DNA of 64,000 nucleotides, taken from NCBI RefSeq assembly GCF_028641065.1, contig NC_073414.1:1302001-1366000 (forward strand), read 5' to 3'. This document shows positions 34,560-49,002 of the stretch, piece after piece. Under the pieces are notes generated by a model. It searched no databases, was not told the origin of the DNA, and was given only the letters and a program-made list of their open reading frames with translations. Within the stretch, counting starts at the first letter, position 1; each line of letters begins with the position of its first letter. Position numbers and translations under genes: made by a program. The stretch is from Leucoraja erinacea (lineage: Eukaryota).

Positions 34560-34826
34560 ACACAAAACGCTGGAGTATCTCAGCGGGTCGGGCAGCACCT
34601 GTGGAGAACATGGATAGGTGACGTTTCACAGAGTGCTGGAGTAACTCAGCGGGTGCAGCAGCATCTGTGGAGAACATGGATAGGTGACGTTTCACAGAGT
34701 GCTGGAGTAACTCAGCGGGTCAGGCAGCATCTGTGGAGAACATGGATAGGTGACGTTTCACAGAGTGCTGGAGTAACTCAGTGGGTCAGGCAGCAGCATC
34801 TGTGGAGAACATGGATAGGTGACGTT
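34560..34826 (-). repeat. 66-bp Penelope-derived tandem array
   Basis: About 4 copies of the same unit as 26097-26565. Confidence 0.85.
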
Positions 34827-37371: not shown

Positions 37372-37882
37372 TCTGAAGACGGGTCCCGACATGAAACGTC
37401 ACCTATCCATGTTCTACACAGATGCTGCCTGACCCGCTGAGTTACTCCAGCACTCTGAAATGTCACCTATCCATGTTCTCCACAGATGCTGCCTGACCCG
37501 CTGAGTTATGGTGCAGCAGCATCTATGGAGCTAAGGAAATAGGCAACGTTTAAGGCCAAAACACTTCTGGCAATAGGCAACGTTTCGGGCCGAAACCCAG
37601 AAGGGTTTTGGCCCGAAACGTTGCCTATTTCCTTAGCTCCATAGATGCTGCCTGACCCGCTGAGTTACTCCAGCACTCTGTGAAACGTCACCTATCCATG
37701 TTCTCCACAGATGCTGCCTGACCCGCTGAGTTACTCCAGCACTCTGTGAAACGTCACCTATCCATGTTCTCCACAGATGCTGCCTGACCCGCTGAGTTAC
37801 TCCAGCACTCTGTGAAACGTCACCTATCCATGTTCTCCACAGATGCTGCTGACCCACTGAGTTACTCCAGCACTCTGTGTCT
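37372..37882 (+). repeat. 66-bp Penelope-derived tandem array, headed by a degenerate hammerhead core and with a central palindromic insert
   Basis: CTGAAGACGGGTCCCGACATGAAACGTC, then TGAAACGTCACCTATCCATGTTCTCCACAGATGCTGCC... units. Confidence 0.85.
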
Positions 37883-38425: not shown

Positions 38426-38774
38426 TGACACCTGCAAGGGGGGGAGAATGCACTTCATTGCAAAGTCGATCTTGCAGCCAGCATTCACTCAAAGAAACAA
38501 GAAAGAGAGCAAAATAAACAAGGCGACTGTGTGGAGCTGTTAATGACCTGGTTGGATGCAGTGAGTGATGGGGAAGGGGGGGGGGAGGAGTGTAAAGTGG
38601 CTGCAACCTGTGTGACTGCCTGCAAGAGCAGATGACAAGTGGTCTTTAAATTTAAAATGCTCTTGTTATTTCAGTGCCCCTCCCCTCTCTCCCCCCCCTC
38701 CTCCTCTCCCTTTAATGGGTTGTGGCCAGGAGATGAGGTACACTGTGGTTCTGGGCGTTGAAGTGGATGGTACC

Positions 38775-39248
38775 ATGGAGAGGATTGTTCCCAGGTTTGC
38801 TTTGGGAACCCAGGAGTTTGACATCTGGAAGGACTACCTGCAGCTGTCACTGAAGGTGGAGGAGTTGTGTCGGCCTGGGCTGGACGGTAGCGAGCCAGCG
38901 GATGTGCCCGCCGCTCCCGCTCCCCTCTCCGCTGGCACCGTACGCCCGCGGCTGGTGTCGTCGTCCAGCGAGTCGCCGCCCGACTGTGACGGTCCCGGCA
39001 AGAACGCGGGCAGCATCTGCACCTTCTGCAAGCACAACGGCGAGTCACGCAAGGTGTACACCTCGCACATGCTGAAGACCGATGGCGGGAGGGTGGTGTG
39101 CCCGATACTTCGCAACTACGTTTGCCCGCTGTGCCAAGCCACGGGCGACTCTGCGCACACCCTGAAGTATTGCTGCTTCAACCCCGACAAACAATCTCTC
39201 TACCGCAACCACGGGCGTAACTCAGTGGGCAAGAAGTCACGTCGCTGA
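38775..39248 (+). CDS. NANOS2: Nanos homolog 2 (upstream in-frame ATGs at 38715 and 38733 are possible)
   Basis: NOT1-interacting motif FDIWKDYLQL. Two CCHC fingers CTFCKHNGESRKVYTSH...CPILRNYVCPLCQATGDSAHTLKYC. NANOS2-type tail QSLYRNHGRNSVGKK. ACCATGG Kozak context at 38775. Confidence 0.93.
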   Translation: MERIVPRFALGTQEFDIWKDYLQLSLKVEELCRPGLDGSEPADVPAAPAPLSAGTVRPRLVSSSSESPPDCDGPGKNAGSICTFCKHNGESRKVYTSHMLKTDGGRVVCPILRNYVCPLCQATGDSAHTLKYCCFNPDKQSLYRNHGRNSVGKKSRR

Positions 39249-39269
39249 CTGGCCAGCCAAAATCTACCA

Positions 39270-40230
39270 AACGAGACCTCCTTCTAAAACTTGAAACACA
39301 GGCAGACAAACCTTGTAGATGGCCAAAGTTAACGGGACAAGCCACCTTCTTCTAAAACTTGAAACACAGGCAGAGAAACCTTGTAGATGGCCAAAGTCAA
39401 TGGGACAAAACACCTTCTTCTAAAACTTGAAACACAGGCAGACAAACCTTGTAGATGGCCAAAGTTAACGGGACAAGCCACCTTCTTCTAAAACTTGAAA
39501 CACAGGCAGACAAACCTTGTAGGCAGCCTAGGTCAATGGGACAAGACACCTTCTTCTAAAACTTGAAACACAGGCAGACAAACCTTGTAGATGGCCAAAG
39601 TCAACGGGACAAGATACCTTCTTCTAAAACTTGAAACACAGGCAGACAAACCTTGTTGGCAGCCTAGGTCAACTGGATAAGAGACTTTCTTCTAAAACTT
39701 GTAACAGACAAACCTTGTAGATGGCCAAAGTCAACGGGACAACACACCTTCTTCTAAAACTTGAAACACAGGTGGAAAAAAGTTGTACATGGCCAAAGCC
39801 AACCAAACCAGATTATGAAGAAGGGTCTCCACCCAAAACGTCACCCATTCCACCTCTCCAGAGATGCCGCCTGTCCCGCTGAGCTACTCCAGCATTTTGT
39901 TTCTATCTTCAAACAAGATAATTTATTTTAAAACTTGTAACGCAGGCAGAGAAGCCTTGTCGATGGCTGAAGTCAACCAGAAAGGGAGACCTTCTTCTAA
40001 AGCTTGCAACATAAGCAAGGAAGCTTTGTAGAAGGCTGGTCAACCAATCGAGAGACTTTCTTTTAAATCTTGTAAAATAAGTAAAGAGGTTTTATAGACA
40101 AAAACAGAGACTTTTCTTTTAAAACTTCTAACATAAGCATAGATGTTTTGTAGACGGCTAAAGTCAACCAAAAGGGAGACTTATCTTTTAAAACTTGTAG
40201 CATAAGCAGAGAAGTTTTGTACATAGCATT
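39270..40230 (+). repeat. 68-bp tandem array in the nanos2 3'UTR (8 well-conserved plus ~5 diverged units)
   Basis: CTAAAAC anchor at 39284, 39352, 39420, 39488, 39556, 39624, 39692 and 39754. Penelope-like insert at ~39815-39910. Candidate polyA signal ATTAAA at 40389. Confidence 0.95.
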
Positions 40231-40465
40231 GCCGGTACATTAATGCTTAAGATGAATGGATCAGAATTGGTTTGATGTTCATTTATATTTATGATGCTGG
40301 ACTGCCGACATTTTTGTTTTATTTGCCGCTTTACGGAAGTTGTACAATGTCTTGAAAAGAGTTTTATTTTTCTTGAGGAACGTTGTATATTAAAGTACGT
40401 TTTTATCTTTGTGAATTCTGCTTACTTTTTACTCTGATAGGGTCAGTGTGGCAGATGTGTAATTA

Positions 40466-40876
40466 GAAACAGAAACATAGAAATTAGGTGCAGGAGTAGA
40501 GGCCATTCGGCCCTTCGAGCCTGCACCGCCATTCAATATGATCATGGCTGATCATCCAACTCAGTATCCCGTACCTGCCTTCTCTCCATACCCCCTGATC
40601 CCCTTAGCCACAAGGGCCACATCTAACTCCCTCTTAAATATAGCCAATGAACTGGCCTCAACTACCCCCTGTGGCAGAGAATTCCACAGATTCACCACTC
40701 TCTGTGTGAAAAAAGTTCTTCTCATCTCGGTTTTAAAGGATTTCCCCCTTATCCTTAAGCTGTGACCCCTTGTCCTGGACTTCCCCAACATCGGGAACAA
40801 TTTTCCTGCATCTAGCCTGTCCAACCCCTTAAGAATTTTGTAAGTTTCTATAAGATCCCCTCTCAATCTTCTAAAT
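40466..40876 (-). mobile_element. CR1/HER1-like LINE 3' fragment
   Basis: RGDLIETYKILKGLDRLDAG...WNSLP plus 3'UTR. Confidence 0.9.
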
Positions 40877-41127
40877 TGTGATGATGTTACCCAAAATGCA
40901 GTAAACCCTCGTTTTAATGGACCTCTTTATAATGGATTTTGGTTACATTAAACCATGCCCCACACATCTCCTTTAAATTTTGACCATCTCACCTTAAAGC
41001 ACTTTGACATTTCCACTCTGCAAAAGATATGATTTCAGCTTCCTTGTCGAGAGTTTAGAGATACAGTGCGGAAACAGGCCCTTCGGCCCATCGAGTCCCC
41101 GCCGACCACACTAACACTATTCTCACT

Positions 41128-42944: not shown

Positions 42945-43795
42945 CACAGAGTGGTGAATCTGTGGAATTCTCTGCCGCAGAAGGTAGTTGAGGCCACACA
43001 GTTCATTGGCTATATTTAAGAGGGAGTTAGATGTGGCCCTTGTGGCTAAAGGGATCAGGGGGTATGGAGAGAAGGCAGGTACGGGATACTGAGTTGGATG
43101 ATCAGCCATGATCATATTGAATGGCGGTGCAGGCTCGAAGGGCCGAATGGCCTACTCCTGCACCTAATTTCTATGTTTCTATGAAGACACAAAATGCTGG
43201 AGTAACTCAGCGGGACAGGCAGCATCTCTGGAGAGAAGGAATGGGTGACGTTTTGGGTCGAGACCCTTCTTCAGACAGTGTGAAAAGGGACTGGATATTT
43301 TAAAAGCGAAGATAGATAAGATTCTTGATTACGTCTGAAGAAGGGTCTCGACCCGAAATGTCACCCATTCCTTCTCTCCAGAGATGCTGCCCGTCCCGCT
43401 GAGTTACTCCAGCTTTTTGTGGCTGTCCCCAGTGTGGAGCTGTCCTTGTGTCCCCGGTGTGGAGCTGTCTTGAGCCCTTACTGGAGCTGACCAGTGGGTC
43501 TTGGTGTGGAGCTGATCTAGAGCCCCAGCATGGAGCTGACCAGTGAGCCCCAGCGTGGAGCTGACCAGTGGGCCCCAGTGTGGAGCTAACCTTGAGCCCC
43601 AGCATGGAGCTGACCTTAACCCCAGTGCGGAGCTGACCAGTGGGCCCCAGTGTGGAGCTAACCTTGAGCCCCAGCATGGAGCTGACCTTAACCCCAGTGC
43701 GGAGCTGACCAGTGAGCCCCAGCGTGGAGCTGACCTTAGCTACCTTAGACTCTTGATTAGTACGGGTGTCAGAGGTTTTGGGGAGAAGGCTGGAC
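42945..43795 (+). repeat. Inverted segmental duplication, copy A
   Basis: Mosaic of CR1 end, Penelope-like palindrome and GGAGCTGACC minisatellite. It is the reverse complement of ~55788-56650; ORFs 43300-43677(-) and 55905-56291(+) are nearly identical. Confidence 0.9.
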
Positions 43796-48716: not shown

Positions 48717-49002
48717 CACAGAGTGCTGGAGTAACTCAGTGGGTCAGGCAGCATCTGTGAAGAACATGGATAGGTGGCGTTTCACAGAATGCTGGAGTAA
48801 CTCAGCGGGTTAGGCAGCATCTGTGAAGAACATGGATAGGTGACGTTTCACAGAGTGCTGGAGTAACTCAGTGGGTCAGGCAGCATCTGTGGAGAACATG
48901 GATAGGTGACGTTTCACAGAGTGCTGGAGTAACTCAGCGGGTCAGGCAGCATCTGTGAAGAACATGGATAGGTGACGTTTCGGGTAGGGACCCTTCCTCA
49001 GA
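48717..49002 (-). repeat. 66-bp Penelope-derived tandem array in the ZBTB1-like 3' region
   Basis: Four units, ending in the rc hammerhead-like core CTGAGGAAGGGTCCCTACCCGAAACGTC. Confidence 0.85.

Follow-up and report, generated by a model that had tools for sequence, protein, structure and literature searches.

A polar 68-nt minisatellite and its Pumilio-like motifs in the 3'UTR of a skate nanos2-like gene

Within the window (the whole stretch of DNA that was analysed, 64,000 nt), the 3'UTR of a skate nanos2-like gene is largely made of a tandem array of 13 units of ~68 nt (39276–40240), homogeneous next to the coding sequence and decayed towards its 3' end. We consider it probable, with moderate confidence, that the array is a locus-specific minisatellite grown from a segment that held the Pumilio element of this UTR, and that the Pumilio-like motifs repeated in its units are passengers.

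The gene, the array and the inserted repeat

The ORF encodes two CCHC zinc fingers (zf-nanos) and has its nearest similarity to Nanos2 proteins, the best named among its 34 homologues being chondrichthyan 'nanos homolog 2(-like)', and it falls in a 90% cluster with nanos2 of Amblyraja radiata, to which it is 96% identical. Domain, nearest homologues and cluster identify the gene, by sequence, as skate nanos2(-like), in agreement with the first-pass annotation. Its conserved start is probably a second ATG at 38775, where the Kozak context is strong and where most Nanos2 proteins of sharks and rays begin; the corresponding M21 is nearly invariant among the homologues, and, apart from unaligned counterparts in two rays, the 20 codons upstream are confined to the skate proteins. 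Of five neighbouring ORFs scanned, four had a domain match, the domains being Peptidase_M28, F-box, BTB-zinc finger and RNA_polI_A34; the Peptidase_M28, F-box and RNA_polI_A34 neighbours may be QPCTL, FBXO46 and POLR1G, presumably near NANOS2 in human as well. Sharks have four nanos paralogues, and expression of nanos2 in germline stem cells is cited for both fish and mouse (PMC5932020); the single UTR passage in the available part of that shark paper is general.

Table 1. Features of the nanos2-like locus, in coordinates of the window
Feature	Position	Strand	Remarks
nanos2-like single ORF	38715..39248	+	177 aa from first ATG; zf-nanos PF05741, E 1e-24
Young block, units 1–8	39276..39815	+	68 nt each; unit 7 with 6-nt deletion
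UAAAACUUG, best-conserved block of unit	39285–39293 and same register in all units	+	3 changes vs 10.8 expected
UGUAGAUG, amplified weak site	39314..39321	+	also 39382, 39450, 39586, 39716; ACCU upstream
5' copy of 12-nt target-site duplication	39804..39815	+	10/12 identical to 39910–39921
Dispersed-repeat insertion, 5'-truncated copy	39816..39909	+	between units 8 and 9; ~95 nt
Old block, units 9–13	39911..40240	+	23–41% pairwise divergence; unit 13 partial
UGUAAAAUA, unit 11 first-register site	40071..40079	+	predicted 5-fold weaker than 40218
NBS + relaxed PRE, GUUU-UGUA	40145..40152	+	unit 12; DDWW definition
Perfect NBS + PRE, GUUU-UGUACAUA	40214..40225	+	unit 13; only one in UTR
UGUA	40341..40344	+	48 nt upstream of hexamer; candidate CFIm25 site by position
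UGUAUAUU, second PRE (UGUANAUW)	40384..40391	+	outside array, overlaps poly(A) hexamer
ATTAAA, putative poly(A) hexamer	40389..40394	+	first canonical after stop; U-rich context

A 68-nt tandem array after the nanos2 stop codon had been proposed, and it was recovered both by TRF (39276–39803, period 68, 7.9 copies, score 776, with further diverged rows up to 40155) and by a unit profile search of the window, which found 13 units at E ≤ 1.2e-8 and its next best match at E 0.22. Unit 1 begins 27 nt 3' of the stop, close to the ~25 nt given before. The array had also been said to fill most of the UTR up to ATTAAA: about 75% of 39249–40410 is indeed covered, but the units end near 40240 and the final ~150 nt are non-repeat. 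Likewise, the seven units quoted were correct, but six weaker ones had been omitted and the 95-nt dispersed-repeat insertion missed. BLAST and profile searches found no further copy of the unit in the window, within which it is, as had been supposed, not a dispersed TE; its tandem units of 10–100 nt at a single locus in these 64 kb make it a minisatellite. Neither the distal-unit profile nor local alignment found older relic units in the UTR tail or the CDS. With 81 TRF rows in the window, minisatellites are common here.

Divergence between adjacent units rises from 5' to 3' (7, 5, 12, 10, 12, 17, 19, 29, 26, 33, 29 and 31%) and distance from unit 1 follows unit position (Spearman 0.945), so that the homogeneous-to-decayed gradient and the polar expansion beside the CDS read from it both hold. 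The unit tree is ladder-like, with units 1–8 split from units 9–13 at a support of 86/94, below the starred level and with an unsettled bootstrap. Units 1, 3, 5 and 7 are only 2–8% apart, with an exact repeat of 94 nt common to units 1 and 3, and units 4 and 6 group together (support 97/97); this odd/even likeness suggests that the latest duplication unit was a 136-nt dimer. No consensus fold of the unit was conserved (RNAalifold −0.2 kcal/mol, 3 pairs) and the predicted fold of the unit is less stable than that of shuffled sequences (z +1.0 to +1.4), and conserved stem-loops of the NORAD type were rejected on these two comparisons.

The array is interrupted by a copy of a dispersed repeat with >90 other BLAST matches in the window (for example at 14719, 18532, 26097–26555, 34569–34826, 37637–37879 and 48717–48981), which was met in two other organisms, on tens of thousands of contigs, and is matched by thousands of RNA reads. 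A CUGANGA – hairpin – GAAAC arrangement, matched 14 times in the window over both strands, occurs in some copies; in it we presume a resemblance to the Penelope-type minimal hammerhead motif. The likeness to the minimal hammerheads of Penelope-like elements (PMC4209133) lies in this arrangement and concerns the insertion only; the inserted repeat has no match in Rfam, the nanos2 UTR copy, which lies in sense orientation, has an altered core, and the available part of that paper names no shark. The ~95-nt repeat also forms 66-nt tandem arrays in the window.

Inclusion of the array in the nanos2 mRNA is likely from the layout of the poly(A) signals. The ATTAAA quoted at 40389 is in place and, in a scan of 16 hexamer variants, is the first canonical one after the stop: no AAUAAA or AUUAAA was found between the stop and 40389, earlier candidates being only weak variants (at 40080 and in distal units). 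Moreover, 38715–39420 contains no GT[AG]AG splice donor, and the hexamer has no listed difference in organisms B or C, two related organisms with contigs of this region (see below). Directly 3' of the putative poly(A) site lies a ~400-nt repeat (40471–40877, and about 40 other places, with up to 97% identity), the ORF-like text of which resembles, we presume, the 3' end of a CR1/L2 LINE.

Pumilio-like and Nanos-binding motifs

All TGTA coordinates given in the first-pass annotation were correct, and the UGUACAUA reported at 40218 is there, as the sole UGUANAUA in the UTR. The functional human Pumilio element (PRE) is UGUANAUW, enriched as UGUAHAUW (PMC5758885), and in the UTR UGUANAUW fits only 40218 and 40384. 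The six units omitted earlier read UGUAGGCA, UGUUGGCA, UGUCGAUG, UGUAGAAG, UAUAGACA and UGUAGACG in the same register. In this main register UGUA is kept in 10 of the 13 units, UGUANAU in 7 and UGUANAUA in 1 (that at 40218), and the consensus PRE 8-mer was accordingly discarded as a property of the repeated unit; the young block has on average one UGUA per unit. Because duplication copies a motif, its phasing counts as one draw, not many, a caution that extends to phased RBP motifs within any tandem array, which are one observation.

Sites were scored with the bound and flip terms in Supplementary Table 2 of PMC9352680 (labelled PUF3, PUF3 being predicted with the PUM2 model), with the yeast −2C term dropped and no coupling terms, and the values are human-protein estimates applied to a skate. 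The predicted ddG of UGUAGAUG is 2.24 kcal/mol above consensus, which corresponds to PUM2 binding ~37-fold weaker than at 40218; a first estimate of 60-fold with PUF4 terms was replaced by this one with PUM2-type terms. All five UGUAGAUG sites together would sum to about one eighth of the 40218 site, and the predicted PUM2 load of the UTR falls to units 1–8 for 13%, units 9–12 for 12%, unit 13 for 61% and the tail for 14%. Background stretches of equal length reached the predicted load of units 1–8 in 55 of 431 cases, and among random 68-mers from the window 2.1% hold UGUANAU and 7.7% match or exceed the predicted load of unit 5. Of the better sites, UGUAAAAUA at 40071 is predicted to be usable by PUM2 with one flipped base and, like UGUAUAUU at 40384, has no listed difference in organisms B or C; the site at 40214–40225 is identical in organism B and reads UGUAGAUA at 40218 in organism C, where position 5 is changed from C to G (predicted ~2.8-fold weaker). 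In cells, PUM2 occupancy tracks affinity continuously and is not reduced by predicted structure (10.1101/403006), and given these data a predicted low accessibility of the sites was set aside as an argument.

The same annotation had stated that Nanos–Pumilio complexes tolerate relaxed 3' positions. This stands where a Nanos-binding site (NBS) lies upstream, as DDWWUGUA, and only there (PMC5785226), but it does not extend to the amplified units: DDWW precedes 2 of the 16 UGUAs in the UTR (40149 and 40218), 3 of the 11 covered in organism C and none of the eight in units 1–8, for which the relaxed element was rejected. Seven of these eight have C at −2, and in Drosophila C at −1 or −2 blocks the ternary Nanos–Pumilio complex and repression with Pumilio binding intact, U at −1 being the base that enters the Nanos pocket (PMC4995099). 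U stands at −1 in 16 of 16 UGUAs of the UTR, with about four independent origins. Mouse NANOS2 binds AUKAAWU without PUM and, in the available part of that study, was not found with PUM1/2 (PMC8271163); AUKAAWU, AUGAAUU (a germline motif in PMC12485838) and GCACUU are all absent from this UTR. With no DDWW in the eight amplified sites, C at −2 in seven and no AUKAAWU, and with sites ~37-fold weaker and no excess conservation of UGUA, the autoregulatory Nanos–Pumilio module that had been envisaged for the amplified units is unsupported. Near the distal end, 40214–40225 matches DDWWUGUANAUA like the NBS + PRE of Drosophila hunchback (PMC4995099, PMC5785226) and 40145–40152 matches DDWWUGUA like the NBS + relaxed PRE of Cyclin B (PMC4995099, PMC5785226); in contrast to these Drosophila Nanos response elements, the amplified skate units have ACCU upstream and fail DDWW.

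Direction of change, conservation and related organisms

The consensus of units 9–13 holds two Pumilio-like sites, UGUAACAUA in the first register and GUUU-UGUAGAC. That of units 1–8 differs from it at 13 of 59 columns, 5 of which degrade the two sites (two break the first and three alter bases upstream of the second), and one proximal change, C>T at column 52, improves position 7 of the second site. Three of the five distal units, and unit 7, have the second UUGUA; the distal consensus contains it and the proximal one does not. Should the root lie among the divergent distal units, as a rough clock with no outgroup would place it, the young copies look to have lost sites, and the second UUGUA, described earlier as a gain of the diverged 3' units, was probably lost in the young copies. 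From the distal to the proximal consensus eight changes run from A/T to G/C against two in the opposite direction, an excess that GC-biased conversion, acting where the array is active, might explain.

Whether UGUA is more conserved than the rest of the unit had been suggested as a check, and no significant excess emerged. Among the units it shows 3 parsimony changes against 4.3 expected for matched bases (P 0.40), and the 8-nt PRE register shows 13 against 9.5 (P 0.91); in distal units 9–13, 4 of 10 UGUA cores are broken, with 4.5 expected at the mean divergence of the block (P 0.33–0.51). Across three organisms 23 of 668 covered positions vary, with none of the 44 in UGUA cores (1.5 expected, Fisher P 0.20) and 3 of the 44 at site positions 5–8, two of the latter three changes, the nearest to good sites, falling on the degenerate position 5 (40222 and 40345). 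Power is low in these tests, since about 50 variable sites would be needed (P near 0.03 if the cores were invariant), and at such power UGUA may be under weak constraint. Out of 56 windows of four columns, UUGU is one of the three with the fewest changes, at P 0.03 unmatched and 0.18 when base-matched. The block UAAAACUUG is conserved beyond the base-matched expectation at P 0.003, a post hoc value for the best of about 50 windows, and one that anchored the unit boundaries. In seven young units UAAAACUUG runs into ACUUGAA, a possible miR-26 7mer-A1 site for which about one match per 68 nt is expected by chance.

We compared 39684–40468, a stretch 3' of units 1–6, with 4 of 24 listed sequencing runs at 90% likeness. 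Contigs of organisms B and C span units 9–13, the tail and the junction into the insertion; organism C covers units 7–8 without gaps and shares the 6-nt deletion of unit 7, and organism B covers them in part (39776–39799 uncovered). Since these contigs carry units 7–13 and the insertion, both are, by sequence orthology, older than the splits of the three sampled organisms. Organism C has 13 extra bases in unit 11, and the array differs across organisms at 18 of 462 positions compared with 5 of 206 in the tail (P 0.49). Upstream of unit 7, organism B gave short pieces and organism C one 854-nt record extending 694 nt; units 1–7 of the window would split a 31-mer graph into pieces of 31–108 nt. 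The record of organism C hints at a different proximal block there, assembler collapse being possible and depth no measure of copy number. In metagenome contigs, neither a degenerate pattern of the unit nor a protein search gave a match.

Competing explanations, known systems and the wider window

On the reading that we favour, a ~68-nt AU-rich segment ending in the Pumilio element that is now at 40214–40225 would have been duplicated in tandem in the skate nanos2 3'UTR, and slippage or unequal exchange would have added new copies next to the CDS, most recently in the form of a 136-nt dimer. The dispersed repeat would have entered between units 8 and 9 in an ancestor common to the three sampled organisms. 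Copies would decay neutrally, the young ones having inherited a version without the first Pumilio-like site and without the U-rich bases upstream of the second, and Pumilio control would be exerted mainly via one to three distal sites (40218, 40384 and 40071), as in an ordinary UTR, the phased motifs being passengers. Tolerance of the 95-nt insertion and of the 13-nt indel in the array argues for such passengers; we count against them the 0 of 44 core changes, the U at −1 in all 16 sites, the place of UUGU among the least-changed windows, the C>T at column 52, the conservation of UAAAACUUG and the restriction of changes near good sites to position 5.

Several of these points would instead fit a selected multivalent module, with weak, regularly spaced, Nanos-independent PUM sites acting through avidity or condensates as in NORAD and with copy number tuning nanos2 dose, which we judge rather unlikely. 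UGUA in register in 10 of 13 units, core bases invariant across organisms, an ancestral-type unit with two Pumilio-like sites, the less stable folding of the unit, the continuous dependence of PUM2 occupancy on affinity in cells (10.1101/403006) and the unhindered binding of Pumilio alone next to C at −2 (PMC4995099) are all consistent with it; however, the five amplified sites are predicted to total about one eighth of the single good site, sites appear lost rather than gained in young copies, conservation is not significant, and the units of NORAD carry consensus PREs conserved over 100 My (PMC4947167). Any part for Nanos feedback in such a module fails the NBS test, and mouse NANOS2 was not found with PUM in the available part of PMC8271163. 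A weak multivalent role for the array is possible. We think quite unlikely the bolder proposal of an mRNA counterpart of NORAD, in which a two-site Pumilio/Nanos module was amplified, its newest copies went from GUUU-UGUA to a Nanos-excluding, weak ACCU-UGUA, and the array became a dial by which copy number sets a multivalent, Nanos-independent occupancy by Pumilio, differing from one skate species to another.

The array might also act other than via Pumilio, by binding of another factor to UAAAACUUG, through UGUA as CFIm25 sites, or as a ~870-nt spacer that affects 3'-end choice or mRNA stability. The 3 changes against 10.8 expected in UAAAACUUG, the persistence of the array in three organisms and the 16 UGUAs upstream of a non-canonical AUUAAA, given that CFIm25 binds UGUA lying 5' of poly(A) signals (PMC7852185), point that way, but UAAAACUUG was chosen after the fact, being the best among about 50 windows, and had served to anchor where the units begin and end, the UTR lacks AUKAAWU, AUGAAUU and GCACUU and a consensus structure (RNAalifold −0.2 kcal/mol, 3 pairs), most UGUAs lie hundreds of bases from the hexamer, and persistence over a few percent of divergence is expected without selection; we regard such a function as unlikely. 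Still less probable, and in our view very unlikely, is that the array lies wholly or partly outside the mature mRNA, through earlier polyadenylation or splicing, or that the copy number of the young block is an assembly error. Six N gaps occur in the window, the 94-nt exact repeat is common to units 1 and 3, and weak hexamer variants occur at 40080 and in distal units. In addition, two RNA runs of organism A, sampled at about 5 and about 1 in 100 of their reads, gave matches confined to 5 of 30 bins, all on the dispersed insertion, and no read on unique UTR, an uninformative result with tissue unknown and no CDS control. Against this, no AAUAAA, AUUAAA or GT[AG]AG donor was found in the stretches scanned above, an array that begins 27 nt past the stop leaves hardly any space for an earlier end, organisms B and C both retain an intact hexamer and U-rich tail, and independent contigs confirm units 7–13.

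Minisatellites are known for polar turnover. The array resembles a 3'UTR minisatellite or VNTR in the head-to-tail order of its 68-nt units, their confinement to one locus, the polar homogeneity, the higher-order dimer and the interruption by a mobile element, and differs in the source of its unit, an AU-rich stretch of UTR that contains a PRE. Like the lncRNA NORAD, it is an RNA built by tandem duplication of a unit with one or two Pumilio elements (PMC4947167). NORAD has 12 tandem units of ~300 nt with 17 consensus-type PREs, conserved for >100 My across mammals and supported by structure and CLIP (PMC4947167), whereas the skate array has a consensus PRE in 1 of 13 units, no conserved fold and no detected constraint, and lies in an mRNA tail; it resembles NORAD in origin only. 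The fish nanos3 3'UTR, under miR-430 and Dnd control (PMC5412271), is likewise a nanos-family UTR of a germ-line gene, but it belongs to another paralogue, the skate UTR has no GCACUU, and tandem arrays are undescribed in the available part of that paper. Among the literature matches listed, in which subscription journals are little covered, no title or opening of an abstract dealt with a repeat in a chondrichthyan nanos2 UTR.

If the passenger explanation is true, this locus would be a clean, small example of a 3'UTR rebuilt by minisatellite growth with its functional site staying single. The graded series of 13 units and their orthologues offer a ready natural test for selection on weak Pumilio sites. 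If the NORAD-like reading were true, the array would give a germline stem-cell mRNA a Pumilio module that is built from repeats and tunable by its length, for which the precedent found is the NORAD lncRNA.

Elsewhere in the window, two minisatellites of 24–25/72 nt (43423–43737 and 55844–56155) lie about 12 kb apart and are apparent reverse-complement relatives, and a GC-rich 32-nt minisatellite of 15 copies (54563–55060) has several open frames running through it. Apart from a chance match at E 9.7 in the UTR, Rfam matched the window only at 56896–56965, a tRNA (47 bits) that was not called by ARAGORN and is possibly a tRNA-derived SINE head or a pseudogene.
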